Shown here: piece by piece, positions 1,451 to 31,237 of the stretch
Position numbering within the stretch: the stretch's first letter is position 1
Layout of the letters: each line of letters begins with the position of its first letter
NCBI GenBank assembly: GCA_045047115.1
Contig: JASFYR010000032.1
Location: 1-31,237 of the forward strand
Direction: 5' to 3'
From: Sulfurospirillum sp.
GTDB taxonomy: Bacteria; Campylobacterota; Campylobacteria; Campylobacterales; Sulfurospirillaceae
DNA length: 31,237 bases
Position numbers and translations under genes: made by a program
The notes under the pieces: generated by a model
Database searches by the model: none
Seen by the model: the letters and a program-made list of their open reading frames with translations, nothing else
What the model was told of the DNA's origin: nothing

Positions 1451-2070
1451 GACGAGGGTTGAGTTTGATAGAGCTGATATTTACTATCGTGATTATCGCT
1501 ATCGTTTTTACTGTTATCCCAAAAGTGGTTTTGTCTCTAAATAAAAGTGATAAATTTGCTATCCGCCAAGATGCACTTTTTAATGGAATTTCTCTTTTAC
1601 AGATGATTTCAAAACTGCCGTGGGATGAAAACAATACCCAAAGCACAGACATACTGCATGTATCTAGCGGAAATTTCAGGTGTGATGATATCAGCAAGAT
1701 GCGAATGGGCGGCTTCGTGGGCTCAAGAAATTGTGAAGAGAATCTAAGTGCAAGCTCGATTTCAAATGATGCACAGAGTGACTACAACCTTTTTAACGAT
1801 ATAGATGATTTTAACAATCTAGATATAAATGCTTCATATTATGCTCTACATGTAGAGGTAGATTATATAGATGACAATATAACATATAATGGGCAAAAAG
1901 CCGTATTTGCGCTTAATAGCACACCTGTTTCAGGTACTACTAATCTTAAAATGGTAGATGTAAATATAAGTTATCAGGGCAAGAGAGGGAAGATTAAGCA
2001 TATATCCGGATTTAACTATGTATCATCAAATATAGGACAAATTACCCTAAACAAGCGAGTATGGAAATGA
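1447..2070 (+). CDS. Type IV minor pilin / pseudopilin (MshD/PilV-like)
   Basis: Class III signal MRRG|LSLIELIFTIVII with Glu at +5; ATGA overlap with the upstream stop. Confidence 0.85.
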   Translation: MRRGLSLIELIFTIVIIAIVFTVIPKVVLSLNKSDKFAIRQDALFNGISLLQMISKLPWDENNTQSTDILHVSSGNFRCDDISKMRMGGFVGSRNCEENLSASSISNDAQSDYNLFNDIDDFNNLDINASYYALHVEVDYIDDNITYNGQKAVFALNSTPVSGTTNLKMVDVNISYQGKRGKIKHISGFNYVSSNIGQITLNKRVWK

Positions 2071-2993
2071 AAACCAGAGCTTTTACTCTTATTGAAATTG
2101 TGGTAACCATTGTAATATTAGGTATCTTGTCGGCTGGTACTTTTGTGTCATTGAAGCATCTCTATGTGAAGGTTGCAAAATCAAAAGCCTTGAGTGATCT
2201 CTCAAGTGATTCACAAGTTGTTGTTGATCAGATATCTGCACTGTTGTATGACAGAGTTCCTAGCTCAGTGATAGGCTACAAAAGTGACGGAACATTTCAA
2301 AGCATCTATGCTCTTGGTTCCCCATTCAATATAATAGAATGGATCGGAGTTGCAAGTGAAGCACAAAAAGCCGGGTATTATAGTGGATTTGTAGATTTGA
2401 ACAGGTCTGATAAAATCACAAATACCATATATTCGCCAAATATCGATGCCTCAGCCTTAAACAGTGTAATGATAAATAAATTTAACAGGACTTCTGGTGA
2501 TTTGGCTCTGATATTTGCCGGAACTTTTGATGATGGATCTTTGGTAATATCCAGTGATTTTAACAACTCTTTCGGATGGCACGGTAATGCACACAATAAA
2601 ATAAATGACATAGCAAGTATCGGCAGCAATACTATAGCTTTTGTTTCAACCCCTGATGAGATATATGAAAAATACTATCTTATTGATAGTGCTTACGCGA
2701 TAGCCAGGGGATATGACATAGATATGAATGCCAGTTGTATAAAAGATTTGAACAAAAGTGATGCAAACACACTGTTTCTTTTTTACAACTACAGGCCATG
2801 GCAAGGGAAGACATTTTGTGCAGATCCAAATGGAAGTGCCCAAGATGGCAATGTAACTGTACTGACATATAATGCAAAAGGTTTTGAAGCAAATCTCATC
2901 AATGATAGTATAAAATTTAATTTAACTCTACAGAAACACATAAGGGGTAGTGATAATAATATCACTATATCCAAACAAAAGGTTGTATTTTGA
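2067..2993 (+). CDS. Type IV minor pilin (MshO/PilW-like)
   Basis: MKTRA|FTLIEIVVTIVILG prepilin motif. The ATG at 2067 overlaps the upstream TGA; 2061 is an alternative start. Confidence 0.85.
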   Translation: MKTRAFTLIEIVVTIVILGILSAGTFVSLKHLYVKVAKSKALSDLSSDSQVVVDQISALLYDRVPSSVIGYKSDGTFQSIYALGSPFNIIEWIGVASEAQKAGYYSGFVDLNRSDKITNTIYSPNIDASALNSVMINKFNRTSGDLALIFAGTFDDGSLVISSDFNNSFGWHGNAHNKINDIASIGSNTIAFVSTPDEIYEKYYLIDSAYAIARGYDIDMNASCIKDLNKSDANTLFLFYNYRPWQGKTFCADPNGSAQDGNVTVLTYNAKGFEANLINDSIKFNLTLQKHIRGSDNNITISKQKVVF

Positions 2994-3445
2994 ATCGCTC
3001 TGGTTTTGGTCTTATGCAAGCACTCTTGGTTATAGTTTTAATAAGCGGTATTTTGGTAATTGCTATGAAATACGCAACGGTAAATGTCAAACAGACAAGA
3101 GATATATATCTAAAAGAGTCGGCTGAGCTCTTCATGAACAGTGCAGTTGAATTGGGTTTGCTGGCCATTAGTGGATATGACAGAAACTCTACAAACCCCT
3201 GTCTAAATGAAGTAAGTATAACCTCGCCGAACCAAAGATTTATAGCGGATGTAAATATAACCAAATACTATCTTTTGGCAGGAAGTGCGGATTGTATAAG
3301 ATGTGGAAGTCTTTGTGAGCCAATTGACACAAAAGAGTCACAAGGTATGGTTATGTTAGAAGTTACAGTAGAGACCAATACAACCCATCCAAAAAATCAC
3401 GGCAAACAAATAATCCTCAAAAGAAGGACTTTGCAGAGACCATGA
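2990..3445 (+). CDS. Minor pilin of the PilX/GspK/MshP class
   Basis: TTG start; MNRSG|FGLMQALLVIV has a prepilin site lacking Glu+5, as is typical of the PilX/GspK class; four Cys. Confidence 0.7.
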   Translation: MNRSGFGLMQALLVIVLISGILVIAMKYATVNVKQTRDIYLKESAELFMNSAVELGLLAISGYDRNSTNPCLNEVSITSPNQRFIADVNITKYYLLAGSADCIRCGSLCEPIDTKESQGMVMLEVTVETNTTHPKNHGKQIILKRRTLQRP

Positions 3446-3972
3446 AAAATAATAATGTTAAATGTTTAATTTTTAATGATGAATTAAATTCAAAATTCAA
3501 AATTCAAAATTCAAAATTAATAAGAAATGGTTTTTCTATGGTAGAGTTGATATTTGTTATCCTTCTTATCGGTATTTTAGCATATATCGGTGGAAATTTT
3601 TTACCTGACAATCGACTCTTAAACGATACAAATTTTCTCACAATGAAGATTAAGCAAACACAAAAAAATGCTCTCTTGTATGATGCAGTAGGATTTTTAA
3701 AACCATGGAGTGTAGAAAATAACTCCACATGTATAGATTTAAATACAACTAAACTAGAATTAAAAGATAAAAATACACAAAAACCGCATAGATTTAGTTC
3801 AATCTTAAGCGTGGATGGAAATAGTACGATATGCTTCGATAATTTTGGCAGGCCTTATCAGTCGGAACATCTTTTGCTTAAAAATTTAGATATGAACTTG
3901 ACATACAAACAAAATGAGTATAAGAGTATTTCAGTTGTTCCAATATCCGGTTATGCTATAATAAAAAAATAA
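3442..3972 (+). CDS. Minor pilin (FimU/GspH/MshC-like) with a repeat-extended leader
   Basis: RNG|FSMVELIFVILLIG prepilin motif and C-terminal 'ICFDNFGRP' resembling GspH/FimT; the 30-aa leader is largely encoded by heptamer repeats. Confidence 0.8.
   Translation: MKNNNVKCLIFNDELNSKFKIQNSKLIRNGFSMVELIFVILLIGILAYIGGNFLPDNRLLNDTNFLTMKIKQTQKNALLYDAVGFLKPWSVENNSTCIDLNTTKLELKDKNTQKPHRFSSILSVDGNSTICFDNFGRPYQSEHLLLKNLDMNLTYKQNEYKSISVVPISGYAIIKK
3451..3520. repeat. Heptamer tandem repeat (AAATTCA)x4.7 preceded by degenerate opposing heptamers
   Basis: 3486-3518 = AAATTCA AAATTCA AAATTCA AAATTCA AAATT; 3451-3485 = AATAATG TTAAATG TTTAATT TTTAATG ATGAATT. Confidence 0.9.
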
Positions 3973-3994
3973 AATTAAAGGGCAAAGTTAAGGT

Positions 3995-5491
3995 ATGGCA
4001 AAAACTCAAAAGATTCAGTATATAAATCCGACAGATTTGTCTTTGCTTGTTTATGATGGTAAACACTTTCAAAATATTAATAAAAAAGAAAATCTATATA
4101 CAGTCTCAAGAGTTTTGTACGAAAATGCTACTTTGTATAGTTTTAAAATTCCATCAGTTCAGGCAAATGATGATTTGACTTCTTTGGTTGAGATTAAGAT
4201 GTATGAAGAAGCTGGTCTTGATGTAAATAAAAGCTACAAAATTTCATATCTTGTAAAAGAGCTTGACTTTAATGAGATGTGCTTGATTGAAGCCTTTGCG
4301 GTAGATATAGAAATACTAAAAGAGGCACACAAAGAGTCTATCAAAAAGGTAAAATATATAGACTTTCTAGTATTTCCTTTTTTTGCTTTTAAAACATTTT
4401 ATGTAAATAAAATTCTAACTCCTAAAAATGATATTTTTGTCTATATAGGCAACGATGAAGCTTTTTTGAGTTTTTACAAAAATGGCTCATACATATCAAC
4501 CAAATCTATGATAAATCTAAGCGAAATGGTAGAAAAACTTAATGCTCAAGATATTGTCATAAATCTTGAAAAATTAAATGAGATACTTTTAAGCAAAGGA
4601 CTAAAAGCAGAATTATACGAAAAGAGCGAGAGTGAACTTTTTGTGGCGCTTGAGTCTCTGTTTTCTGATATTTTGACAAAGATTAACAATGTTGCTATGC
4701 ACAATAGAAGTGTTTTTGGTTTTGACAAGATTGAGAGGATCTTTTTTAGCACAAAACAGGGGCGAATAAAAGGGCTAAAAGAGTTTGTTGCAGAGTTTGG
4801 TTTTGTTAATGTTGATGTTTTGGATTTTAACCTTTTTAGGGATAAACAGGAGGTTGACTTTTTAGACAAAGTTGTGTGTTCATATGGCTTTGACAAGTAT
4901 CTGCAAAATTCCAATAAGCAAAATATAACTATCTTTGGCAAACCACCATCTTTTTTATCAACACAGTTTGGTAAACTGACTCTTTGGATTTTTATTTTCC
5001 TTGCTGTTCTTTTTAGTGTATATTCATATTTTTATTTTGATATTCAAAACTTACAAAACCAAGAAAATTTATTGCAAATAAAATATCAAAGTATAAAAAA
5101 CAGAGCAAATATATACAAAAGAGAGACTGGAAAAAAAATACGAGATATTAAAGGTATCAAAAAAGAGATGCAAAAGCAAGATATTGTATTTGAAAGCATT
5201 AAACAAAGCATAGACAAGCTTGAAAAGATGAAAGGAAAACAGAGCAGATATATAGACTTTTTGGCAAGTGTAAACCAGCTCCTGCAAAAATACCGACTTA
5301 AGGCAAAAAGCATAATCCAAACCGGTCGTACTAAAATGACAATTGAGGTTATATCAAATTATGGAAACAGGGATAAGATAGCCAAGTTCTTGAAGTCCCT
5401 CATAAGTGAAGGCTTTGTAAATGTCAGAACACAAGAGATAAAGTTGGATAATGACAAATATATCAGCAAAGTTGAGATAGAACATGAGTAG
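3995..5491 (+). CDS. Pilus alignment-complex protein, PilM/PilN (GspL/MshI)-like
   Basis: Large N-terminal soluble domain, one TM helix (LTLWIFIFLAVLFSVYSYF), a coiled coil and a short C-terminal domain; positioned before a PilO-like gene. Confidence 0.55.
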   Translation: MAKTQKIQYINPTDLSLLVYDGKHFQNINKKENLYTVSRVLYENATLYSFKIPSVQANDDLTSLVEIKMYEEAGLDVNKSYKISYLVKELDFNEMCLIEAFAVDIEILKEAHKESIKKVKYIDFLVFPFFAFKTFYVNKILTPKNDIFVYIGNDEAFLSFYKNGSYISTKSMINLSEMVEKLNAQDIVINLEKLNEILLSKGLKAELYEKSESELFVALESLFSDILTKINNVAMHNRSVFGFDKIERIFFSTKQGRIKGLKEFVAEFGFVNVDVLDFNLFRDKQEVDFLDKVVCSYGFDKYLQNSNKQNITIFGKPPSFLSTQFGKLTLWIFIFLAVLFSVYSYFYFDIQNLQNQENLLQIKYQSIKNRANIYKRETGKKIRDIKGIKKEMQKQDIVFESIKQSIDKLEKMKGKQSRYIDFLASVNQLLQKYRLKAKSIIQTGRTKMTIEVISNYGNRDKIAKFLKSLISEGFVNVRTQEIKLDNDKYISKVEIEHE

Positions 5492-6095
5492 AATAGAAAC
5501 ATATCTAATCAGCGCAGACAAGAGACAAAAATACCTCATATATTTTATGATTTTTGGTTTGATTTTCTATCTTTTTGTGCAAATTATTATGCCTATGCGA
5601 GACGAACAGATTGTACTTCAAAGCAGAATTGACAGCTTGCAAGTAAAATTGTCAAACAACTCATTGTCAAGACTCAAGAAGATAAGAGATATGAAGACAA
5701 AAGAGTTATTGGCTTTAAAAAGCAAACAAGAGAACAAAAAAGAGAATATAGACTATCTTATATCTGGATTATATAAATTAAAATATGCTTTTTATGATGA
5801 TAAAGAGTGGGCAAAAAGTATGGATGATATTTTGAAGTACTCTATAAAGAGAAATTTGAAAATAAAGTATATCAAAAGTATGGAAGTAAAGCCTGAAAAA
5901 AACAATACTGTTATATTAAAAAAGAGAAAAAGACTTGAGATAAGCGGCAGTGGAAATTATATAGATATAGTCGCTTTTATATCTTATGTAGATAATCTAA
6001 ATGCTCTTTTAAAATTTGAAAAAACAGAGATAAATCTACAGGACAAAGAGTTGGATTTTAAACTTTATATTGATATGTATGGGATTGGGCTATGA
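5484..6095 (+). CDS. PilO/MshJ-like assembly protein
   Basis: N-terminal TM, coiled coil and C-terminal 'LEISGSGNYIDIVAFISYVDNL', a PilO/GspM-like pattern. Confidence 0.65.
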   Translation: MSRIETYLISADKRQKYLIYFMIFGLIFYLFVQIIMPMRDEQIVLQSRIDSLQVKLSNNSLSRLKKIRDMKTKELLALKSKQENKKENIDYLISGLYKLKYAFYDDKEWAKSMDDILKYSIKRNLKIKYIKSMEVKPEKNNTVILKKRKRLEISGSGNYIDIVAFISYVDNLNALLKFEKTEINLQDKELDFKLYIDMYGIGL

Positions 6096-6490
6096 AATTT
6101 GTAGTATCTGTTTTGTTTTTGCTTTCTTTTGTTTTTGGTGACAATTTGGCACAAAGATTGCAAAAACTCATCAATGACAAGAGCGAGAAAAAAGTAGAGG
6201 TTTTGAAGTATGATCCATTTTTTACAAAACTTGAAATCAAAAAAACATATAAGAAAGATTTAGTTCTGAAAAAAAAGAAAAAAACAGTAAAAAACAGAGA
6301 ATTAAAACTTGTAAGTATAATGGGAACAAAGGCATTTGTTGATGGTCGATGGATAGCCAAAGGTGATGTAGTAACAGGATACAGAGTAAAAAAAGTTTTA
6401 GGAAACGCAGTTATTTTATACAAAAAAAGAAAAACGATAGTTTTAAGATTTGAAAAAAATGCAGAGATTTTAAAAGTGAGGGAAAAATAG
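6092..6490 (+). CDS. MshK/CtsR-like small exported pilus protein
   Basis: Signal peptide, 'YDPF', and 'LKLVSIMGTKAFVDGRWIAKGDVVTGYRV', a PilP/GspC-like pattern; immediately precedes the secretin. Confidence 0.6.
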   Translation: MKFVVSVLFLLSFVFGDNLAQRLQKLINDKSEKKVEVLKYDPFFTKLEIKKTYKKDLVLKKKKKTVKNRELKLVSIMGTKAFVDGRWIAKGDVVTGYRVKKVLGNAVILYKKRKTIVLRFEKNAEILKVREK

Positions 6491-6492
6491 AG

Positions 6493-7917
6493 ATGAAAGT
6501 TAGATTTGTATTGTTTATATTGGTATTTTTAGTAACAACAGCTTTTTCAAACTGTGAAAATAAATTTTTCTCTTTTAGCGTAAAGGACTCGGGAGGAAGT
6601 GGTATCACCGCGCTTGATATATTGGAAAATATAACAGATGAGTGTAAGATGACCATGATGTTTCAAGATAAAGATGTTAAGCCGATACTTGAGAAAAAAC
6701 TCAACTATATCAATGTAAAAGATTTTTCATTACAAGAGCTTTTAAATCTTCTTTTGAGTGATAGAAATCTTTTTTATACGCTAGATAACAATAAAAAGAT
6801 TTTAAAAATTTCATATCTGAAAACAAAGACATATCTTATAGATTATGTAAGTTTTACGAAAAGAACAAGCACAACAAATAAAACGATAAAAACAGGTTCA
6901 GCCACAGGAGGTAGTGGTGGTGAAGATTCTACGACTATGGATTTTACATCAGATTTTCAGTTTTGGAAAAAGATAGAGTCTCAGATAAACAGTATATTAA
7001 ACAGAAATAGTGAAAATGGAGAAAACAAGGCAAAAGCACTTATAAACCAAGATGCCGGGATGGTGACTGTAACAGGAGATAAAAAACAACTTGATGGTGT
7101 TGAACAATATATAAAAGAGATGATGAAAAGACTCCATAAAGAGATACTTATAGAGGCAAAGCTGATAGAAGTGACCTATGATGGCAGTAAAACAAATGGT
7201 GTTGATTGGAGTAAGTTTGAGTTGGGCATAAATGGCACAAGTGATGCTTTAAGACAGAGAACAGCCGGAGTACTGACAAGTGGCTTTAGAAAACCAAACT
7301 ATTTGATCGGATATAATTTTTCAATGAATGGATTGATCAAGTTTTTGAAATCTCAAGGTGATGTTAAAATTGTGTCGAACCCAAAAGTTATGACTCTTAA
7401 CAATCAGCCAGCGGTTATAAATGTCGGAACGGAAGTAAACTACAGATATAATGACGGGAGTACAACCTCTGTCTCTAACGGCACAACAACGACAACCCCA
7501 AGCTATACAACCGACTCAACTTTTGTGGGAGTGACACTGGATATTACTCCTCAGGTAACGAGTGATAATTTTATAATGCTAAAAATCAATCCGATTGTCA
7601 GTGAAATTTCAAAAGAGCATATAGACAGTAACGGAGTGCCATTTTTGGCACCGGATATCAAGATAAAACAACTCTCTTCTGTGGTGAAAGTAAAAGACGG
7701 CAATAAAGTGCTCATAGGAGGATTGATAAATAAAAACACACACACTACTGTGACATCTGTTCCTCTGCTTTCTTCTATCCCGCTTATAGGACAAGCTTTC
7801 AAAAGCGATGCAAAAGTTGTTACAAACAGCGAACTTATAATCGTACTCATCCCGCATATCGTAGATGTAAACAAAAAACCGAATTTAAGTGATTTTGATA
7901 TCTCTGTTAAGAATTGA
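6493..7917 (+). CDS. mshL: Secretin, MSHA-type MshL / CtsD
   Basis: Secretin motifs 'ILIEAKLIEV', 'GVDWS', 'SNPKVMTLNNQPAVI', 'VPLLSSIPLIGQAF' and 'SELIIVLIPHI'. Confidence 0.92.
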   Translation: MKVRFVLFILVFLVTTAFSNCENKFFSFSVKDSGGSGITALDILENITDECKMTMMFQDKDVKPILEKKLNYINVKDFSLQELLNLLLSDRNLFYTLDNNKKILKISYLKTKTYLIDYVSFTKRTSTTNKTIKTGSATGGSGGEDSTTMDFTSDFQFWKKIESQINSILNRNSENGENKAKALINQDAGMVTVTGDKKQLDGVEQYIKEMMKRLHKEILIEAKLIEVTYDGSKTNGVDWSKFELGINGTSDALRQRTAGVLTSGFRKPNYLIGYNFSMNGLIKFLKSQGDVKIVSNPKVMTLNNQPAVINVGTEVNYRYNDGSTTSVSNGTTTTTPSYTTDSTFVGVTLDITPQVTSDNFIMLKINPIVSEISKEHIDSNGVPFLAPDIKIKQLSSVVKVKDGNKVLIGGLINKNTHTTVTSVPLLSSIPLIGQAFKSDAKVVTNSELIIVLIPHIVDVNKKPNLSDFDISVKN

Positions 7918-7919
7918 TT

Positions 7920-8717
7920 ATGAGAGATTATGAAAAAGCCAAAGAGTTATTTAGAGATATCATAGATGCAAAATACTATTTTGACAGTACAAGTGCAGAG
8001 GTAGCAAGATATAAGATTGAAAATGCTATCGAAGAGAGAAATGCTCCTTTGATATTTCTCATAGGTGATCCCGGAGTCGGAAAAAGCTATATTTTAAAAC
8101 TGATAAGCTTGGAATTGGAAAAAAAATCACTCAGTATATTTATAGATCATCCTTTTTTTGACAAGAGGGATTTGCTGAAAATTTTATATGAAGCTAAAAA
8201 CTTAGAGTTTGATAAAAATATAAATTTTAATGAATTAAAAGAAAAACTGCTAGAACTCTACAGGGACGATAAACATACTATTTTTATAGATGAAGCACAG
8301 CTCCTAAATGAGGAGCAGTTTGAGCTCATAAGGATACTTGGAGACACAAAAATTTTTCAATTTGTTCTCTCGATGCACAAAGAAGAGGGGAGTGCAATAC
8401 TTGAGAAGAAGCACTTTAAATCAAGAACAAAGGTTGTTGTTGAGTATGGCAGGCTTCATCACAGTGAAGTTTACAGATATATACAAAGCACACTCCTTTT
8501 GGAAAATCATTTTGAAATATCCCAAATGTTATCTGTCAAAAATGCCAAGATAGTTACCAAATACTGCCTGGGCAATTTTAGGACTGTAAAAAAGTTCATC
8601 TATTCGCTATTGACTCTACTGGAGTATGCAAAGAAAAACGGACTGAGAAAATACTGCAATATAAATGGATGTCTGCTAAAGATGAGTGCTCTGGATATTG
8701 GGGTTATTCATGACTGA
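7920..8717 (+). CDS. ExeA/MshM/CtsP-like AAA ATPase
   Basis: Walker A GDPGVGKS and Walker B IFIDEAQ; follows the secretin. ATG at 7920 (TTG at 7914 is an alternative). Confidence 0.8.
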   Translation: MRDYEKAKELFRDIIDAKYYFDSTSAEVARYKIENAIEERNAPLIFLIGDPGVGKSYILKLISLELEKKSLSIFIDHPFFDKRDLLKILYEAKNLEFDKNINFNELKEKLLELYRDDKHTIFIDEAQLLNEEQFELIRILGDTKIFQFVLSMHKEEGSAILEKKHFKSRTKVVVEYGRLHHSEVYRYIQSTLLLENHFEISQMLSVKNAKIVTKYCLGNFRTVKKFIYSLLTLLEYAKKNGLRKYCNINGCLLKMSALDIGVIHD

Positions 8718-9450
8718 CAGGGCATTTGAAGATTTACAAAAAAGATGTAAAAAGATGGGTATTAAAAAATTTATGAAGATAGTTTTGTCTGTTTTTTTAC
8801 TTTTTTTAACTGTGATCTTTTTATGCTTTGTATATATTAAGATAAACAGTATAGAGCCAAAAAAAAGTGTTATTAGGCAAAAAAAAGTTAAAATAATCAA
8901 AAAAAATGTGTCAAGCACAACTCTCAAACAAGAAAAATCATTTAAGCCAAAAAATATACCAAAAATTAAAATTCCTCAAAAAGAGAAAAAAGATGATTAT
9001 AATACAGTAATTCTAAAGCCTACAATCATAATTCCCAAAATAAAAACTTCGCAAATGCAGCAGGTGCAAAATCTAAAACCCAAGATTGTTAAAAAAATAG
9101 AACCGGAAAAAAAGGTACAAAAAGAGAGAAAAAAAATAATTATACAAGTGCGGTCTTTAAGAGATGAAGCATCTTTGTTGAAGGAAAACAAGACTAGTGA
9201 AAGTTTTCAAAGCACTTTAAATCTTTCTGAGTATTATCTTAAGAAATCCAAATATGAAAAAGCAATCAATTGGTCGAAAAAAGCAAATCACTATAAACCA
9301 TCCTCTTTTAAGCCGTGGTTGATTTATGCAAAGGCAAAGATAAAGCAGGGTAAAAAAAGTGAAGCCGCAAAAGCAGTGGAGACATTTTTGTCATATTTTA
9401 GCTCGCCTGATGCGCAAAAGTTTTTATATGAAATAAAAGGTAAAAAATGA
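8710..9450 (+). CDS. MshN/CtsX-like membrane-anchored TPR protein
   Basis: TM helix, Lys/Pro-rich linker and C-terminal TPR-like helices (YYLKKSKYEKAINWS...PWLIYAKA). The ATG at 8710 overlaps the upstream gene end. Confidence 0.65.
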   Translation: MTDRAFEDLQKRCKKMGIKKFMKIVLSVFLLFLTVIFLCFVYIKINSIEPKKSVIRQKKVKIIKKNVSSTTLKQEKSFKPKNIPKIKIPQKEKKDDYNTVILKPTIIIPKIKTSQMQQVQNLKPKIVKKIEPEKKVQKERKKIIIQVRSLRDEASLLKENKTSESFQSTLNLSEYYLKKSKYEKAINWSKKANHYKPSSFKPWLIYAKAKIKQGKKSEAAKAVETFLSYFSSPDAQKFLYEIKGKK

Positions 9451-9983
9451 AAACAATTACCACTTTTTTTCTAGTTTTTTACTCTTTGGTATATGCGTAT
9501 AGTAAAAAAGAGTTGATAAGTGACTATCAAAATAAAAATTTTAAAAAAGTATGTATAGACGGAGCGATTTCTGATAGTAAAGATGAAGCTATATTGTCTC
9601 TGGTAGGAAATGCCTGTTTGAAAATAGACGCCATAAATCCACTGGGAATTATAGTAAAAAGACTCGTATCAACTCCAAAATATAGAGAAAATGCATCCTA
9701 TTTTGCCACTATCTTGTTACAAAAAAAACTGATTTATCAATTTATGAATGATGGAATTGATTTGAAGAGCATAAGACTGCCAAGAACATCAAATATACTT
9801 TCAGTTGTATTTGAAAATATTATTAAAAAAAATTATAGAGTTATAGATAGAAACAAAAACAAAATAGAGATAAGTATTGGAAATAAAAAGTATATTCTTT
9901 GGCGTTCAAATGATAATCCACCCAAAGTTTTTATAGATGAATACAAAGATGGAATTTTATTAAAAACACATTGGTATCTATAA
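9447..9983 (+). CDS. Exported hypothetical protein
   Basis: 178-aa ORF with a Sec-type signal (…VYA|Y) and two Cys; ATGA-coupled to the upstream gene. Confidence 0.7.
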   Translation: MKTITTFFLVFYSLVYAYSKKELISDYQNKNFKKVCIDGAISDSKDEAILSLVGNACLKIDAINPLGIIVKRLVSTPKYRENASYFATILLQKKLIYQFMNDGIDLKSIRLPRTSNILSVVFENIIKKNYRVIDRNKNKIEISIGNKKYILWRSNDNPPKVFIDEYKDGILLKTHWYL

Positions 9984-10008
9984 AATGAGTAGAAGGACAG
10001 TAAAATGA

Positions 10009-10084
10009 AATTTCTTGGCAAAGCCAAAGCTTTAGTCGCGAGGAATTTTTGCGGAATTCACTTCCGTAAAAAGGGGACAGTAAA
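10009..10084 (+). repeat. Two-hairpin dispersed element, copy 1 (upstream of the GspE/MshE gene)
   Basis: 10028-10079 is identical over 52 bp to the reverse complement of 31143-31194; flanked by the direct repeat GGACAGTAAAATGA (9995-10008 and 10075-10088). Confidence 0.95.
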
Positions 10085-11752
10085 ATGATTCAAAAAAAGA
10101 TACGAATTGGTGATATCCTCATCGAAAAGGGATTTATAGACCAGGACCAATTGATGCTGGCTCTAAAAGAACAAAAAAAGAGTAATTTTGCAAAGAAATT
10201 GGGTCAGTATTTTGTAGATGAAGGTTATATCAGCGAGAGAGCTTTTGCGGAGATTTTAGCTGAGCAGTTAGATATAGAGTTTATCGACCTATACGGTGTC
10301 GAGGTTGATTTTAACTTAATGACAAAATACCCCTTAAATTTACTCAAAAGTTCTTTGGCTGTGCCTTTTTTGGAAGATGAAGAGTTTGTTCATGTAGCAG
10401 TTGTTGATCCACTAGATTATGAATCCATAGAGCTTTTAGAGAGAAATATAGCAACCAAGCCTATAAAGTTGTATGTATCACTAAAAAGTGATGTAAATCA
10501 CATCTTTGAAAGATTTGAGATAATTTCTACAACAAAACTGATAGTTGACAATATAAAAAGAGAGATAGCTACAAATACCTATAAAGCCGATAGTGAACAG
10601 AGTTCAATCATGCAGCTTATAGAACAGATAGTAAAAAGTGCTATCAAAAACAATGCGAGTGATATATATATAGAGCCCTCAGCTTTTAATGTATCTGTTA
10701 GAAGCAGAATAGATGGAATTTTGAGAGAAAATTTTGTGTTTGATATGGATATATATAATGCTTTGGCATCTAGAATCAAGATACTGGGAAATCTGGATAT
10801 CAGTGAAAAAAGAAAATCTCAAGATGGCAGGTTTACCATGACTGTAGAAAATGGTATATATGATTTTAGACTCTCAACTGCTCCGACAATGTTTGGTGAA
10901 TCAATAGCCATGAGAATCTTAGATCAACAAAAGATACTGCTGAAACTTCGTGATTTAGGCATGGAAGAGAGTAATATAAAAACATTTGAAGAGATTTTAA
11001 AGTCACCTTATGGCATCATTTTTGTAACGGGTCCTACAGGAAGCGGAAAAACTACAACACTGTATGCTGCCCTAAATGAAATCAAAAGTATGGAAAACAA
11101 AATGATAACTATAGAAGATCCTATAGAATATCAACTTCCGCTCGCCCAACAGATACAGATAAATGAAAAGATAGATTACTCTTTTGCTGAGGCCTTGAGA
11201 TCTATTTTGAGGCAAGATCCAGATATCATAATGGTTGGTGAAGTGCGAGATAGTGAGACTCTCAATATCGCAGTGCAAGCATCTCTGACAGGGCATCTTG
11301 TATTTACAACACTGCATACAAATGATGCACCAAGTGCAATAACAAGGATGATCCAGATGAATTTGGAGCCATATCTTATCGCTGATTCACTTGTTGGCGT
11401 AATGGCACAAAGACTTGTGAGAAAAATTTGTCCATACTGTAAAAAAGAGCATAGAGTGCCAAAAAATATGTTGGATTCTGTTAAAAAATATCTTCCCTCT
11501 GAGTATAAATTTTTTAAGGGCGAGGGATGTATTAGATGTGGTTTTAGTGGATACAGCGGCAGAACAATGATAAGTGAGATTTTAAAAATCAGCGAAACGA
11601 TATCTCATCTCATATCCATCAACATGAATAAATATGAAATAGCAAGAAAAGCCGAAGAAAATGATGGCTTTGAGCCTATGATGATTGATGGTTTAAAAAA
11701 AGCACTTGCCGGAATAACAACGCTAGAAGAGGTTTTGAGAGTTGCAAAGTAA
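10085..11752 (+). CDS. mshE: Pilus assembly ATPase GspE/PilB/MshE (CtsE) with an MshEN domain
   Basis: Walker A GPTGSGKT, 'TIEDPIEY', 'LRQDPDIIMVGEVRD', His box 'TGHLVFTTLHTND', CxxC...CxxC zinc motif, and N-terminal RIGxxLxxxG...LxxQ. Confidence 0.93.
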   Translation: MIQKKIRIGDILIEKGFIDQDQLMLALKEQKKSNFAKKLGQYFVDEGYISERAFAEILAEQLDIEFIDLYGVEVDFNLMTKYPLNLLKSSLAVPFLEDEEFVHVAVVDPLDYESIELLERNIATKPIKLYVSLKSDVNHIFERFEIISTTKLIVDNIKREIATNTYKADSEQSSIMQLIEQIVKSAIKNNASDIYIEPSAFNVSVRSRIDGILRENFVFDMDIYNALASRIKILGNLDISEKRKSQDGRFTMTVENGIYDFRLSTAPTMFGESIAMRILDQQKILLKLRDLGMEESNIKTFEEILKSPYGIIFVTGPTGSGKTTTLYAALNEIKSMENKMITIEDPIEYQLPLAQQIQINEKIDYSFAEALRSILRQDPDIIMVGEVRDSETLNIAVQASLTGHLVFTTLHTNDAPSAITRMIQMNLEPYLIADSLVGVMAQRLVRKICPYCKKEHRVPKNMLDSVKKYLPSEYKFFKGEGCIRCGFSGYSGRTMISEILKISETISHLISINMNKYEIARKAEENDGFEPMMIDGLKKALAGITTLEEVLRVAK

Positions 11753-13007
11753 ACAAACAGGTATAAAATTTTTTGAGATAGAGTATATATCAAACGGTAA
11801 AAAAAATAAAACAGTACTCTCAAGTCAAAATAAATTTGAAGCTATAAAAGATTTTAAGTCAAAAACTATCGGTGTTTTTCTTGGTATCGAAGAAGTAGCA
11901 GAACCTTTTAGTGTAAAATTAGATCTGCTAAAGAAGTATCTAAAAGATAAACTAAGAGCAAAAAAAATCCCTCTTGAGCCCTATATAGCTTCATTGCGAC
12001 AGATTTCAACGATGCTAAATGCCGGATTACCTATCACCACTTGCTTGAAAGATGTTGTTAAAACTACAGAACACAAAAGACTCAAAGAGATTTTTACTAC
12101 GGTTCTCGAAGAGGTGGAGTCAGGAATAAATCTATCAAATGCATTTATGATATTTGAAGAAGAGGTTGGAACCATATCTATAGCGCTATTTGATTTAGGT
12201 GAAAAAACAGGTACTTTGGATGATTCGATCGGAAAATTAGCAGATATACTCCAAGAAGTCTATGACAATCGAATGAAACTCAAAAAAGCGACCAGATATC
12301 CGATAATAGTAATAGTCGTGATGATTATAGCCTTTTCTGTTGTTTTGACGCTTGTTGTGCCGCAATTTAAAGATATGTTTGATGAGTACAATGCCAATCT
12401 TCCTTTTCCTACAATTTTACTCTTATGGATAGAAAATGCTGTTAGAGAATATGGGGTTTTTGTGATTTTAGGTGCTTTTTTGTTTAGTAGCGCTCTTTCT
12501 TATGCATATAAAAAAAGTGCCAAATTTAAACTCTTGTTCGATAGATATATGTTAAAAGTATATATAGTCGGACAAGTTATATTTCTCTCTATGATTGGCA
12601 GATTTGTGTATGTTTTTGATAGACTCAGTACTTCTGGTATACCTATCATTGACTCACTGAAGACTGCTATTGGTATCGTAGAAAACAGTTATTTAAAAAA
12701 AAGACTAAGAGAGATAATAGATGCTATAGAAGAGGGTAGGAGTCTGACAAATGGTTTTGAAGATACACAGCAGTTTGAAAGTATGATTATTCAAATGATA
12801 AGTGCGGGAGAAAACAGCGGTTCTCTGAGTGGTATGTTAGATAAGATATCAGATATATATAGAAAAAAGTATGCTTATTTAGTGGACAATGTCTCTACTA
12901 TGATTGAACCACTTCTTATCGCTGCAATTGCCGGTTTTGTTTTGCTTCTTGCCCTCGGTATATTTTTGCCTATGTGGTCTATCGCAGAAGCGGTTGGCGG
13001 TACCTGA
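11742..13007 (+). CDS. Platform protein GspF/PilC/MshG (CtsF)
   Basis: 'RQISTMLNAGLP', 'GEKTGTLD', 'YPIIV', 'AGENSGSL' and 'MIEPLL…IFLPMW'; the TTG start is uncertain. Confidence 0.92.
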   Translation: MQSKQTGIKFFEIEYISNGKKNKTVLSSQNKFEAIKDFKSKTIGVFLGIEEVAEPFSVKLDLLKKYLKDKLRAKKIPLEPYIASLRQISTMLNAGLPITTCLKDVVKTTEHKRLKEIFTTVLEEVESGINLSNAFMIFEEEVGTISIALFDLGEKTGTLDDSIGKLADILQEVYDNRMKLKKATRYPIIVIVVMIIAFSVVLTLVVPQFKDMFDEYNANLPFPTILLLWIENAVREYGVFVILGAFLFSSALSYAYKKSAKFKLLFDRYMLKVYIVGQVIFLSMIGRFVYVFDRLSTSGIPIIDSLKTAIGIVENSYLKKRLREIIDAIEEGRSLTNGFEDTQQFESMIIQMISAGENSGSLSGMLDKISDIYRKKYAYLVDNVSTMIEPLLIAAIAGFVLLLALGIFLPMWSIAEAVGGT

Positions 13008-19286: not shown

Positions 19287-21674
19287 GTGAAAGTAGAAGT
19301 ATCTCGTAGAAGATTTCTTCAAGGCAGTGTTGCGCTTAGCATCATAGGTGGAACTACATTTAGTGCTAGCAAGCTTTTGTCTGAAGACGAACACGACCGA
19401 GGAAAGATGCAGCTGATAACCAGAACTACAAACATAAAAGCCAAAAAAGTACCATTTTTGTGCGGTATGTGTGTAAATAAATGTGCAGGAATTGCCAGAG
19501 TAGAGAAGGGTGTTGTGGTAAAACTGGACCCAAATCCGTATTTTCCAAAGTCAAGAAATATGCTTTGCCCCAGAGGAAATGCCGGAATTCAAACTCTTTA
19601 TGATCCAGATCGTCTAAAATATCCACTAGTTAGAGTTGGTGAAAGAGGTGATGGTAAATACAAAAGAGTTTCATGGGATGAGGCTTATAATGCTATACTG
19701 CATGGAACAGATAAGTTTAAAGGTCTGCTTCAAATTTTAGATGAAGAGAAAGACAACCGCTCCACTATAGGTTATTGTAATGGAGAGGGTCTGTCTAAAG
19801 AGGGCTTTGAAGAGTTGATGGGATTAAAAATCGGTACTCCAAACTATGTTGATGAGATTAGTATCTGCCTGGAGACGGTTTTGGGGGCTTATTCAGCTAC
19901 TATCGGTGCTTACGGAGAAGCTGATATGAATAATGCCGATTATGTTATCATAGCCGGTGCAAATAGAGCCGAAGCTATAATTACTCCAGATACTATGGAT
20001 ATGTTTAAAAGAAGCAAAGGAAGGGGACTAAAAACTATAGTTTTGGATCCAAGATTTACAAATACCGCAGCAAAAGCTGATAGATGGTATGCAGTCAATC
20101 CGGGAACTGATCTTGCCTTTGTTTTAGCTTTAACATATGTTGTGTTTAATGAAAATCTGTATGACAAAGAGTTTGCTAAAAAATATATGGTTGGGTATGA
20201 GGATTATAAAAATCATGTATTAAAAAATGGCTATACCCCTGAATGGGCACAAAAGATTACAAATATTCCTGCGGGTGAGATATATAAGACAGCAAGAGAG
20301 TTTATGGCTGCCCAGCACCCTATATACTATCAGGGAAGAAGAAGTGTTTTTGCCAAAAATGACTTTCAGCTTCGTCGAGCACAGGGTATCTTTCAGGGTT
20401 TAAGTGGAAATCTTGATAAAAAAGGCGGTATCATATATGGTAAAAAGTTAATACTTCCAAAAGAAGATGTTAATGCCCCGATGTATGCTCAAGCCCAAGA
20501 TAGATTTGATAAAGACGGAATTGCTATATTTGCTGACAAAACCGGCTCTTGGATTGTCTTTAGAAACATGGTATTAGAGAAAAAAAATCCATACCCGATA
20601 AGAGCTATGTTTATGAGAAAACATAATCCGATGTCAGGTGTTCCAAATACTGCCAAAACACAAGAGTTTCTTAAAAAGATGGATTTAAATGTAATGATAG
20701 ATATACTTCCTAGTGATACTACAATGTTTTGTGATGTTGTATTGCCTGAAGCTTCATATCTTGAGAGAACTTCACCAGTTGCAAGCTACGGTTTTCTTGA
20801 GCCGGCTATCGTTCAGAGAAAAGCTGCAATCAAACCACTTTATGAGTCTAAAACTCCTGAGGTTATCTATAAAGAATTGGCAGAAAAACTCACAAAACCA
20901 CTTTGGGAAAATACTCTGAAACATGATAAGGATGTCCAGAGCGATACAAAAGGCATGAAGCCAAAAGAGCTGGCTAAATATTATAAAGAGAATGGTTTTG
21001 ACTTAGCTGATGCCTGGAAAAAAACAGTAGAAGAAGAAAACAGAGAGAAGGTTGAAAAGGCCTTTGGAGAAGAGGCATGGAAAACTTTGGAAAGCAAAGG
21101 TGTTTACTATCCAAATATGGAAAAATACCATAAACAGTTAAATCCAAATGAGTACCGATATTACCCTGAAGATAAGAAAAATTACACAACAAAAGGTGAT
21201 AAGCTAAAAGTTATATGTGATTTTAAAAACTTGGCCAAAAAAGGTGTTGATCCTATGCCTACATGGAAAGATGAGTATGCTTTTAGTGTTCCAGACGGCA
21301 AGTTTAGACTTGTCACAGGAAGACATGCGCAATTTACTCAAAGTGGCACTACAAACAATATGATGCTAAGAGATTTGATTCCTACAAACTATATCTGGAT
21401 AAATAAAAGAGTAGCTAAAAAGAGAGGTATAGAGTTTGGTGATAAAGTTGAGGTCAGAAGTAGTGTCGGCAAGATTCATATAAAAGCATATCCGACAGAA
21501 AAAATAGCACCGAATATGATATTTATGCTCCATGGTTTCGGAGGAAGCAGTAAAGAGATGGAGATGGCATATGGCAATGGCGGTAATGATGCGGCAATCA
21601 TAGAAGATAAGATTGAGCCTGTATATGGAGCTGCTGTTATGCACGAGACAAATGTTGAAGTAAGGAAGGTGTAA
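19287..21674 (+). CDS. psrA: Molybdopterin oxidoreductase catalytic subunit, polysulfide/thiosulfate reductase (PsrA/PhsA) family
   Basis: Tat signal SRRRFLQ, 4Fe-4S motif CGMCVNKC…CPRG, 'LYDPDRLKYPL', candidate Mo-ligand Cys in 'SICL' and 'DVVLPEASYLER'. The substrate cannot be determined from sequence alone. Confidence 0.8.
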   Translation: MKVEVSRRRFLQGSVALSIIGGTTFSASKLLSEDEHDRGKMQLITRTTNIKAKKVPFLCGMCVNKCAGIARVEKGVVVKLDPNPYFPKSRNMLCPRGNAGIQTLYDPDRLKYPLVRVGERGDGKYKRVSWDEAYNAILHGTDKFKGLLQILDEEKDNRSTIGYCNGEGLSKEGFEELMGLKIGTPNYVDEISICLETVLGAYSATIGAYGEADMNNADYVIIAGANRAEAIITPDTMDMFKRSKGRGLKTIVLDPRFTNTAAKADRWYAVNPGTDLAFVLALTYVVFNENLYDKEFAKKYMVGYEDYKNHVLKNGYTPEWAQKITNIPAGEIYKTAREFMAAQHPIYYQGRRSVFAKNDFQLRRAQGIFQGLSGNLDKKGGIIYGKKLILPKEDVNAPMYAQAQDRFDKDGIAIFADKTGSWIVFRNMVLEKKNPYPIRAMFMRKHNPMSGVPNTAKTQEFLKKMDLNVMIDILPSDTTMFCDVVLPEASYLERTSPVASYGFLEPAIVQRKAAIKPLYESKTPEVIYKELAEKLTKPLWENTLKHDKDVQSDTKGMKPKELAKYYKENGFDLADAWKKTVEEENREKVEKAFGEEAWKTLESKGVYYPNMEKYHKQLNPNEYRYYPEDKKNYTTKGDKLKVICDFKNLAKKGVDPMPTWKDEYAFSVPDGKFRLVTGRHAQFTQSGTTNNMMLRDLIPTNYIWINKRVAKKRGIEFGDKVEVRSSVGKIHIKAYPTEKIAPNMIFMLHGFGGSSKEMEMAYGNGGNDAAIIEDKIEPVYGAAVMHETNVEVRKV

Positions 21675-21676
21675 TC

Positions 21677-22240
21677 ATGGCAAATTATGGAATGGCATTA
21701 GATTATAAAAATTGTATAAATTGTAAAGCATGTGAAGTTGCCTGTAAAGAGGAAAATGGAGTCCAGCTTGGAGCAGATAAACATCGTATATGGGTTGGAG
21801 TTAAGGAGATAGAGGGTTTGTGGCCAAATCTTAACATTGCCTCCAGTACCTTTGAACCTAGCCAATGTCAACAGTGTGAAAATGCACCTTGCCAGGAAGT
21901 TTGTCCTACTCAGGCTACTCACTATACAAAAGATGGCGTCGTGATGGTTGACGCAGATAAGTGTATCTTGTGTAGTTATTGTATGGAGGCTTGCCCTTAT
22001 GATGCAAGGTATGTGAAAGAGGATACGATGACAGTTGATAAGTGTACTTTTTGTAGTGATACAAGACTTCTCCGTGGTGAAACTACTACAGCTTGTCAGG
22101 CAACCTGTCCTACCAAGGTTAGAACTTTTGGTGATTTGGATGATCCAAACAGTGAGATTAGCATACTTTTGATGCATCGTGAGCATCGCACGCTTAAATC
22201 ACATCTTGGCACAAAGCCAAAACTATTTTATTTGATATAA
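21677..22240 (+). CDS. psrB: 4Fe-4S electron-transfer subunit (PsrB/NrfC family)
   Basis: Four Cys clusters: CINCKACEVAC, CQQCENAPCQEVCP, CILCSYCMEACP and CTFC…CQATCP. Confidence 0.88.
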   Translation: MANYGMALDYKNCINCKACEVACKEENGVQLGADKHRIWVGVKEIEGLWPNLNIASSTFEPSQCQQCENAPCQEVCPTQATHYTKDGVVMVDADKCILCSYCMEACPYDARYVKEDTMTVDKCTFCSDTRLLRGETTTACQATCPTKVRTFGDLDDPNSEISILLMHREHRTLKSHLGTKPKLFYLI

Positions 22241-22250
22241 GGAGGCAGGT

Positions 22251-23462
22251 ATGTTTGCATTAGCCGAAAAAGGTATGAAACAGATAGAAAAATTCATACC
22301 GATGAGACACACAGATATGAGAGAGTTATTGAATTTTAAAAAAACACCACTGAATCTTTTGGTAGCATTTACTACACTTGTATTCCTTGTACTTTTTGTG
22401 GTGGGGGCTACAAATTATCTTATACACGGACATCATGCTTACGGGGTTACCAGAGAGCATCCCTGGGGACTTATGATTGCGATGTATATATTTTTCGTTG
22501 TAAGTTCTACCGGGCTTTGTATCATGTCAGCAATTGGGCATGTTTTTGAAGTAAAAGTTTTGGAGCCATTTGCTAAAAGAGCAATTCACGGAGCTCTGGT
22601 GACTTTACTCAGTGGCTTTGTTGTTATATTTTTAGAGATAGGTCATCCTCTTAAAATGATGATTTACAACACAATCAGCCCGGGTCTGACTTCAGCTATA
22701 TGGGGTATGGGTGTTTTATATTCACTCTATCTTATATTTATTGTTATAGAGTTTTTCTTTTTGCTTAGACTTGATCACAAGTGGGCAAAGAGATTTGGTA
22801 TATTTGGTTTGGTTGTGGGAGTTGCAGCTCACTCGAACCTTGGAGCGGTATTTGGATTTTTAGTGGCTCGTCCAGTGGCGAACGGTATCTATTATCCGCT
22901 TTACTTTATACTCTCGGCCATGGTAACAGGATGTTATCTTATCTTTTTGATGTATGGATTTAAGTATAAATTGGATTTTCCGCCTGAAATGCAAAAAACT
23001 CTGATAGCCATGGGTAAAATTTTGGGTTTACTGTTGGCAATTTTACTATTTTTTGAGATTTGGAGAATGTTGACGGCTATATATGGTGGTATGTATGATA
23101 GAGCTGCAACTGCGATGCATATACTAAAATCTTCACCATTTTTAATAGGTGAGATTTTACTAGGGATTCTAATACCTTTTGCTGTCATATTGTTTAGTAA
23201 TGCCAAAGCTATTAAAACTATGGTTTTTGCATCTTTTGGCGGTATGATAGGTATATTTTTTATGAGATATGATTTAGTTCATGATACGCAACTGTTTCCT
23301 ATGCAGACTCTAAAGATAAGAGAGTATCAACTTCCGCCTTCTTTTATAGAGTACACTCCCAGTATGACTGAGATTTTTATAGCATTAGGTGCCATTGGTA
23401 TTGCGATTACACTTTATTATATAGGTGATAAAATTTTATATTTGGAAACTGATCCAGATTAG
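22251..23462 (+). CDS. psrC: NrfD/PsrC-family membrane anchor
   Basis: Polytopic membrane protein with 'PWGLMIAMYIFF', 'EIGHP' and 'FMRYD'; follows the A and B subunits; AAGGAGG RBS. Confidence 0.85.
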   Translation: MFALAEKGMKQIEKFIPMRHTDMRELLNFKKTPLNLLVAFTTLVFLVLFVVGATNYLIHGHHAYGVTREHPWGLMIAMYIFFVVSSTGLCIMSAIGHVFEVKVLEPFAKRAIHGALVTLLSGFVVIFLEIGHPLKMMIYNTISPGLTSAIWGMGVLYSLYLIFIVIEFFFLLRLDHKWAKRFGIFGLVVGVAAHSNLGAVFGFLVARPVANGIYYPLYFILSAMVTGCYLIFLMYGFKYKLDFPPEMQKTLIAMGKILGLLLAILLFFEIWRMLTAIYGGMYDRAATAMHILKSSPFLIGEILLGILIPFAVILFSNAKAIKTMVFASFGGMIGIFFMRYDLVHDTQLFPMQTLKIREYQLPPSFIEYTPSMTEIFIALGAIGIAITLYYIGDKILYLETDPD

Positions 23463-25496: not shown

Positions 25497-25877
25497 TTAT
25501 ATATACAACTTCTTAAAAAGCATAATAGCTGATATGGTAGATGCTATGGTCAGGGTGACATTTAGTGTGATATTTAGAGCAACTCTGGAGTAGTCTCCAT
25601 CTTGTATCATATTTACATTTTCTAAGGAAAATGTAGAAAATGTAGTCAGTGCTCCCAAAAATCCTGTCATAACAAAAGCTTTGTATTGGGGTTCTATCAT
25701 ATTTTGGAAAAACATAGCCATAAAACCGATGATAAAACTACCCAATACATTTACACTGAGTGTTCCAATTGGAAAAAAAATATTTACATTTTTTTGAATA
25801 AAACTTGCAATCAAAAATCTTGATATTGCACCCAAAAAGCCACCAAACCCGATATATAGTAAAAGAGATAAATTCAT
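25497..25877 (-). CDS. crcB: Fluoride channel CrcB/Fluc
   Basis: 'GGFLGAISRF', 'PIGTLSVNVLGSF' and 'TGFLGALTTFSTF'. Confidence 0.96.
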   Translation of the reverse strand: MNLSLLLYIGFGGFLGAISRFLIASFIQKNVNIFFPIGTLSVNVLGSFIIGFMAMFFQNMIEPQYKAFVMTGFLGALTTFSTFSLENVNMIQDGDYSRVALNITLNVTLTIASTISAIMLFKKLYI

Positions 25878-29031: not shown

Positions 29032-29110
29032 TTTATTGTCCCCTTTTCATGGAAGTGAATTCCATAAAAATTCCTCGCGACTGAAGCACGAAGTAAACTT
29101 CTGTATCTTT
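29032..29110 (-). repeat. Two-hairpin dispersed element, copy 2 (diverged), between purC and purS
   Basis: The minus strand reads GAAGTTTACTTC-GT-GCTTCAGTCGCGAGGAATTTTTATGGAATTCACTTCCATGAAAAGGGGACAATAAA-ATG. Confidence 0.93.
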
Positions 29111-29114
29111 CATA

Positions 29115-31137: not shown

Positions 31138-31237
31138 ATTATTGTCCCCTTTTTACGGAAGTGAATTCCGCAAAAATTCCTCGCGACTAAAGCTACGCCT
31201 TTGGCGAGAAAATTACTATTTATTGTCCCCTTTTTAC
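31138..31237 (-). repeat. Two-hairpin dispersed element, copy 3 plus the truncated end of a tandem copy 4
   Basis: 52-bp identity to copy 1; TATTGTCCCCTTTTTAC occurs at 31140-31156 and again at 31221-31237 (81-bp period, cut by the window end). Confidence 0.95.

Follow-up and report, generated by a model that had tools for sequence, protein, structure and literature searches.

A MIRU-like mobile repeat of Campylobacterales that carries two covarying hairpins and abuts start codons

MIRUs, as presented in the available text of PMC12548453 and PMC3184786 (after Supply et al., 1997), are 40-100 bp long, occur in tens of copies at filled and empty sites, insert at start codons and contain internal inverted repeats. 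The same text describes an internal ORF of MIRUs that is coupled at -4 nt to the host gene, and how MIRUs move and by which enzyme is not stated in it. Neisseria REP2 and Borrelia IR-A/IR-B, in the available part of PMC3184786, are promoter-bearing repeats of 120-180 bp, and REP2 marks co-regulated genes. Strand-specific imperfect hairpins are a feature of IS200/IS605 (IS608), REP/RAYT and TIR/TIRYT in the accessible sections of PMC3201880, PMC6006769 and PMC3733652. In IS608, two bases 3' of the hairpin foot form crosswise triplets with the first two guide bases (PMC3201880, in part), and an orientation bias of the IS608 kind, towards the lagging-strand template, is stated in the preprint PMC6006769.

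The element analysed here is a MIRU-like mobile repeat: it functions like a MIRU, resembles REP2 or a Borrelia IR in build, and differs in at least one defining feature from each family tested in full. It shares with MIRUs the form of a dispersed intergenic repeat of about 80 nt in tens of copies, internal inverted repeats, and empty and filled orthologous sites. However, it belongs to another phylum, and the likeness rests on architecture and not on sequence comparison. Whereas MIRUs have tetranucleotide direct repeats and imperfect TIRs, the alignment of the present element shows variable flanks and no evident TIRs. Further differences from MIRUs are its own Shine-Dalgarno sequence (SD), the two covarying hairpins with a fixed core, the existence of SD-less subtypes, and copies located within RNase P RNA or in spacers between rRNA or tRNA genes. 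REP2 and the Borrelia IRs are similar in lacking TIRs, in having two internal stem-loops and a 3' ribosome-binding site with ATG, and in lying immediately upstream of genes, but the element here is only about 80 bp long, is usually preceded by a gene on the same strand and gives rise to a coupled mini-ORF. No description of this family was found in the literature searched, in which subscription papers were poorly covered; PMC3733652, seen in part, lists Sulfurovum repeat consensuses in its figures and supplements that may bear on novelty. The present analysis adds an empty-site map, frame statistics, non-coding and antisense sites, and two signs pointing to single-stranded DNA (ssDNA).

The window is the whole 31,237-nt stretch of Sulfurospirillum DNA that was analysed. 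Three copies of the element, which were also built into the model, are its sole significant model matches (Table 1). All three fit the mini-ORF arrangement described below. Comparison with the empty site of genome G301 indicated that the mini-ORF of copy 2 begins at the original purS start position, 1 nt past the purC stop, and in copy 3 the open frame terminates in ATGA on the ctpA start. The array that ends in copy 3 is in frame and runs on into another contig of the same genome (C28): window positions 31165-31237 overlap the start of G000:C28:1-120 by 73 nt, and the contig ends inside the tandem array. The 12-nt linker has three exact matches in the window, and with up to two mismatches allowed it has four against 0.81 expected, which is above chance. 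The window also holds an MSHA/type IV pilus-type operon (143-13007) whose ATPase has a c-di-GMP-binding MshE-type domain, a thiosulfate/polysulfide-reductase-like molybdopterin operon (19287-23462) and a crcB fluoride exporter gene (25497-25877), with no Rfam riboswitch match within the window.

Table 1. Element copies, their parts and candidate transposase genes. Positions refer to the window unless a contig of this genome (G000) is named.
Feature	Position	Strand	Remark
Copy 1	10012-10084	+	in front of mshE/pilB-type ATPase gene
Copy 1, hairpin 1 (TGGC-AAA-GCCA)	10016-10026	+	
Copy 1, flanking 14-nt direct repeat	9995-10008 and 10075-10088		
Copy 1, mini-ORF (27 codons)	10005-10088	+	TGA overlaps mshE ATG (ATGA)
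Copy 2	29032-29105	-	in front of purS
Copy 2, hairpin 1 (GAAG-TTTA-CTTC)	29090-29101	-	TAC/GTG lengthens the stem, one A bulged
Copy 2, near-invariant core (GC-TTCA-GT)	29080-29087	-	
Copy 2, subtype-specific purine linker and GAA	29071-29079	-	base 5' of GAA and second base 3' of hairpin 2 vary together
Copy 2, hairpin 2 (27 nt)	29044-29070	-	
Copy 2, element-supplied SD, spacer and purS start codon	29029-29043	-	start codon at 29031-29029
Copy 2, mini-ORF (26 codons)	29033-29113	-	TAA ends 1 nt 5' of purS ATG
Copy 3	31138-31209	-	last unit of tandem array before ctpA
Copy 3, hairpin 1 (CGCC-AAA-GGCG)	31196-31206	-	two compensated pairs
3' end of preceding tandem unit	31218-31237	-	contig breaks in array
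IS200/IS605-type tnpA (L001)	G000:C20:19553-19921		next ORF broken by an early stop codon
TIRYT-type Y1 gene (L002)	G000:C3:14588-14920		inverted GGGGACAG or GGGGTCAG repeats on either side, partly in tandem
TIRYT-type Y1 gene (L003)	G000:C7:19806-20141		inverted GGGGACAG or GGGGTCAG repeats on either side, partly in tandem
IS110, single copy (L173)	G000:C9:125402-126928		at a Shine-Dalgarno sequence, antisense to neighbouring gene; element absent at junctions

A first-pass annotation of the window had claimed compensatory base changes in both hairpins, and direct reading confirmed them. Hairpin 2 of copy 2 differs from that of copies 1 and 3 at four positions and keeps its pairing throughout, by a two-sided change from C-G to T-A and by one-sided wobble changes from G·T to A-T and from T-A to T·G; hairpin 1 presents three sequences with one fold. 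The covariation also persisted in the larger alignment that the annotation had called for: 77 copies from many genomes, 74 of which had passed a pairing filter in the copy parser, were 95.3% paired compared with 72.3±0.9% after shuffling. This filter loses little, with 58 parsed copies in this genome against 57-59 unfiltered pattern matches. The covariation score was 0.626 versus 0.191 for shuffled alignments and at most 0.169 for slid-partner controls, and 240 two-sided changes were counted against 80.9±8.6 after shuffling. Moreover, RNAalifold found hairpin 2 unprompted, and all four pairs of hairpin 1 were Watson-Crick in 76% of 225 copies, compared with 6.8±1.6% with shuffled arms. The copies share ancestry, so p-values are overstated.

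On the sense strand the element consists of hairpin 1 with a bulged extension, the core GC-TTYA-GT, a subtype-specific purine linker, GAA, hairpin 2, a purine tail and an A/T-rich spacer. Positions near-invariant in the family are C-TTYA-G-T, GAA-TT and AA-G; hairpin 2 is closed by TT/AA and is 27 nt long in 150 of 186 distinct hairpins. A linker and a TTCAC loop that do not vary, as the first-pass annotation had it, hold among the three window copies but not across the family, where they appear in 28/78 and 23/78 of the genome-wide matches, respectively. Judged by eye, a kink-turn or loop-E reading of the linker is not compatible with every subtype.

The model gave 86 HMM matches in this genome and none in the reversed genome. 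At E<1e-4, 78 matches fall into 67 arrays, a total in which arrays split by assembly breaks are counted twice; 54 arrays precede a same-strand ORF (38 of them after a same-strand gene), nine lie at contig ends and four at other sites. Tandem arrays occur, as do partial duplications with variable ends. Within the order, at least nine pattern matches were found in 20 of 301 genomes, spread over five families, and the covariance model matched 14 of 151 genomes of the phylum and none of the 53 genomes of one family (f25). Three weak model matches in another family (f11), located within coding sequences or between them, appear to be chance matches. Among the matches listed, the element is restricted to Campylobacterales apart from two chance matches, and the named records for its commonest subtype are likewise Campylobacterales, such as Sulfurospirillum, Arcobacter and Nitratifractor. 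Viral contigs, plasmids and phages, each probed with one pattern or one copy, gave no match.

The element moves, since orthologous sites are patchily filled and empty, with different subtypes at one and the same gene. The purC-purS junction is filled in 5 of 12 loci of the same genus, by one to three copies of different subtypes, and in none of 18 from other genera; at the empty site of G301 the flanks are nearly identical to those of this genome. The mshE site is filled in 8 of 14 relatives. The ctpA site is filled in 3 of 17; in the tree, it is empty in the sister genome G234 and occupied by other subtypes in G307, G304 and G123. This pattern is most simply explained by repeated gain, with precise loss perhaps contributing. 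In some genomes with few copies, orthologous sites (argF, RNase P) have retained the element, consistent with old insertions that persisted. Left and right flanks resemble each other in a site-specific manner (9.09 versus 7.72±0.19 in shuffled pairs, 65 sites), and the exact flank match is 2.46 against 1.32±0.19 before the start and 2.15 against 1.62±0.11 after it (61 sites). Because this similarity is short, variable (0-12 nt exact on each side) and not present at every site, and the upstream ATG of one family belongs to the element, there is no fixed-length target duplication. Insertion of IS200/IS605 elements is not known to make flank similarity; the element here differs in showing it.

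Hairpin 2 adjoins the SD, as the first-pass annotation had stated. Two subtypes have an SD-like tail, followed 8-15 nt further on by ATG or GTG in 163 of 186 copies, and at gene starts the SD-bearing subtypes end in SD-spacer-ATG; in the three subtypes without such a tail a start at this distance is found in 6 of 49. The annotation missed a second start codon and the mini-ORF coupled to the host gene, a further MIRU-like feature. A start codon lies just upstream of hairpin 1 in 76 of 160 start-abutting copies, and the mini-ORF that it opens runs through both hairpins; its stop lies on the host start (ATGA) or at most 8 nt before it in 65 of 77 copies, a slightly larger set than the 76, versus 29.7 expected for a random frame. 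Start-to-start spacing is 3n+2 in 52 of 76 and peaks at 80 and 83 nt. In the distant-family set only 6 of 13 show 3n+2 spacing, yet the stop lies beside the start in 11 of 13. The mini-ORFs cross the element in three different reading frames; thus the peptide is not conserved and is irrelevant. The proteins encoded downstream, 48 of 54 scanned, have unrelated functions by their Pfam families, from which the gene names are also taken, and include SecY, IF-1, L11, L12, L13, RpoC, DnaK, GuaA, ArgF, SoxZ and FlgG-type proteins. Since these genes share no function, a regulon reading is not supported; as to the co-regulated genes that REP2 marks, no functional theme was seen among the downstream genes here.

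The element also occurs at non-coding sites. One copy of this genome lies inside its RNase P RNA (Rfam RF00010; G000:C9:162658-162737, L329) in a variable helix, which we take to be P12. Four of the 18 RNase P genes examined, from three genera, are filled, and a fifth filled gene was found in G069; insertion loci also include L377, L379, L385 and L403. Other copies lie just before the 16S rRNA gene and, in antisense, in the 16S-23S spacer (L296 in G257; L295 in G284), and a diverged antisense copy lies between tRNA-Cys and tRNA-Ser (L412, G018). All copies at stable-RNA sites end at an ATG triplet, except the one in the second RNase P gene of G234. The target therefore looks like an ATG motif rather than translation as such. 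In this genome's RNase P copy, the left flank is the reverse complement of the 3' end of the element, which rebuilds the helix; the second RNase P gene of G234 is divergent and also holds a copy. In a long-hairpin subtype (L144, L207, L208, L211) the stem arms are those of the variable RNase P helix of G302, G294 and G303 (L376, L378, L384).

IS608 has an orientation biased to the lagging-strand template. The element differs in having no replication-strand bias (31:14 versus 889:607 for all ORFs, p=0.22); its orientation goes with transcription, not replication, and no antisense copy was identified among the 67 arrays of this genome. Wobble pairs are biased to the sense strand, with 20 G·T versus 6 A·C in this genome and 36 versus 10 in relatives when a Watson-Crick-only parser was used, a bias that suits RNA and ssDNA alike. 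The strand test on hairpin 1 alone was not significant (17 G·T versus 9 A·C, p=0.17), and a hairpin 2 count of 99 G·T versus 25 A·C was discarded as strand evidence, as the parser accepted G·T and so biased the count.

The loops were compared with motifs of either nucleic acid: in the available part of PMC13037366, GNA and GNNA mini-hairpins are extra stable in DNA, and GNRA and UNCG are RNA motifs. Among 106 distinct perfect hairpin-1 stems, a set that omits stems with G·T and with them a GNRA-loop subfamily, the 53 tetraloops comprised 27 GNYA, 2 GNRA and no UNCG, and 24 of 48 triloops were C(RNA)G. Hairpin 2 loops are mostly C(TTT)G, A(TTYAC)T or C(TT)G. This repertoire favours ssDNA over RNA in a suggestive manner only, because the RNA control with terminator loops (6 terminators only) failed and wobble-bearing stems with GNRA loops were excluded. 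In addition, the identity of the base 5' of GAA goes together with that of the second base 3' of hairpin 2: 255 copies include 196 G·G and 50 T·A combinations, and 40 distinct types include 25 and 9, respectively, with all nine T contexts taking A. As in IS608, a 4-nt stretch lies 5' of a hairpin foot and its first base covaries with the second base 3' of the foot, so that the covariation across the foot of hairpin 2, judged from the aligned letters, would echo the guide-foot triplets of IS608 in the same geometry. C-TTYA-G loops are also found at IS200/IS605 ends in relatives. The IS608 guide code for the cleavage site was rejected: at the sole position tabulated CAAT/CAGT occurs in both guide classes, where the code predicts a change, and unlike in IS200/IS605 no covarying cleavage site was found.

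The search for a mobilising enzyme covered reverse transcriptase, IS110 and local Y1 genes and yielded none. This genome gave no match to reverse transcriptase (PF00078). Of its three Y1 genes, one is of IS200/IS605 type and is followed by an ORF that, by its position, is presumably tnpB-like. The other two are flanked by GGGGWCAG inverted repeats and resemble the TIRYTs in the accessible parts of PMC3733652 and PMC6006769; similar genes are widespread in the order. The commonest subtype of the element ends in GGGGACAG, which fits the TIRYT motif GGGGWSAS. The TIRYT-type genes were nevertheless rejected as mobiliser, because they share this sequence with one subtype but are present in element-poor genomes as well. 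In contrast to REP/RAYT and TIR/TIRYT, no Y1 gene is flanked by the element in inverted orientation, and the GTAG/CGTC tag is absent at the hairpin foot in the alignment. Flanking copies were absent from all 33 Y1 loci (the nearest case is one locus with a lone copy some 800 nt off), and Y1 genes were not found in G284, G290 and G135, all of which hold copies. IS110 was rejected as a general mobiliser, being present in 23 of 64 genomes and not found in 9 of 10 element-rich genomes of the same genus; its past action on the element is still conceivable. Neither Y1 (PF01797; 58 genomes) nor IS110 (PF02371; 64 genomes) tracks the element in these hand-picked genomes.

The element is probably a non-autonomous short mobile repeat of Campylobacterales with a MIRU-like life, whose fold serves as an ssDNA substrate and which brings an SD and a translational relay to start codons. 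At the DNA level, an AT-rich ATG motif would guide insertion, and start codons would dominate because such insertions are tolerated, the element bringing a new SD. Translation of the mini-ORF should melt hairpin 2 and so pass the ribosome to the host start. The hairpins and the unpaired core may be kept mainly as the ssDNA substrate of a trans-acting enzyme, most plausibly of HUH/Y1 type. A more specific proposal, which we regard as tentative, is that the element is itself an HUH/Y1-type ssDNA mini-transposon with retuned guide/hairpin-foot triplets (G·G versus T·A), aimed at ATG, with the SD and the relay ORF repairing the damage. If true, it would explain in concrete, testable terms how MIRU-like start-codon repeats move, and the element would be a natural example of one that enters gene starts, even RNase P RNA, without breaking them. 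Without a dedicated enzyme, SD-spacer-ATG sequences might recombine by microhomology or allow template switching, and the repeat would spread in this way, with precise loss and array formation through recombination of flanking repeats, and pairing kept because unstructured variants are harmful or poorer switchers. Such spread is consistent with the short and variable flank similarity, the partial duplications with variable ends, and the outcome that no reverse transcriptase and no correlated transposase were found, but it explains neither why the unpaired core is near-invariant and the hairpin length fixed, nor the strict G·G/T·A covariation (34 of 40 distinct types) and the recurrence of one architecture in at least five families, and we consider it improbable.

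The same fold might instead be selected by the host as an RNA element, that is, a portable translation-start, mRNA-stabilising or processing cassette (REP2-like) targeted by an RNA-binding protein or nuclease, with spread being secondary. The sense-strand wobble bias, an orientation that tracks transcription and not replication, the missing antisense copies in this genome's arrays, the fixed length of hairpin 2 near 27 nt and the tolerance inside RNase P RNA all agree with this. However, GNRA and UNCG loops are nearly absent, antisense copies lie in two stable-RNA operons, and the same genes do without the element in close relatives; moreover, frames have been selected to read through the element, as expected for something being neutralised. 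We consider a cassette of this kind unlikely. The first-pass annotation had proposed a folded RNA or ssDNA recognised by a protein or ligand, of which the folded single strand under selection is supported and ligand sensing is not. A leader of riboswitch or regulon type, controlling access to the SD according to a ligand or regulator, could draw on the position of hairpin 2 next to the SD and on an alternative stem, predicted for copies 1 and 3, between the linker and the 5' pyrimidine tract. This alternative stem is unavailable to the copy-2 type, the genes that follow are unrelated, empty orthologous sites occur patchily, and SD-less subtypes rarely have a start directly after them. With copies also at non-coding sites and in antisense, and no match in the window from Rfam, such a leader is extremely improbable.

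Strong covariation beside an SD need not imply a regulatory RNA. In vent and sediment-type Campylobacterales the mobile repeat rewrites the ribosome-binding sites of core genes (secY, infA, rpoC, dnaK, purS), and assemblies break at it, its motifs being present at 21 of 82 contig ends. Hundreds of diverged copies that covary cleanly, sites whose filled and empty states are dated, and a candidate code for ssDNA recognition make the movement of start-codon-seeking repeats directly testable.

Two further structures were observed alongside the element. A structured insert of about 33 nt, flanked by GCTTT repeats, sits in the hairpin 2 loop of some copies (G000:C9:65226, C11:39454; L075) and is possibly a second, smaller element. 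In genus g2, hairpin 1 and the core are followed by a different shared sequence ahead of a gene (L390 near 466 and L404 near 236, both on the - strand), which possibly represents a sister element.
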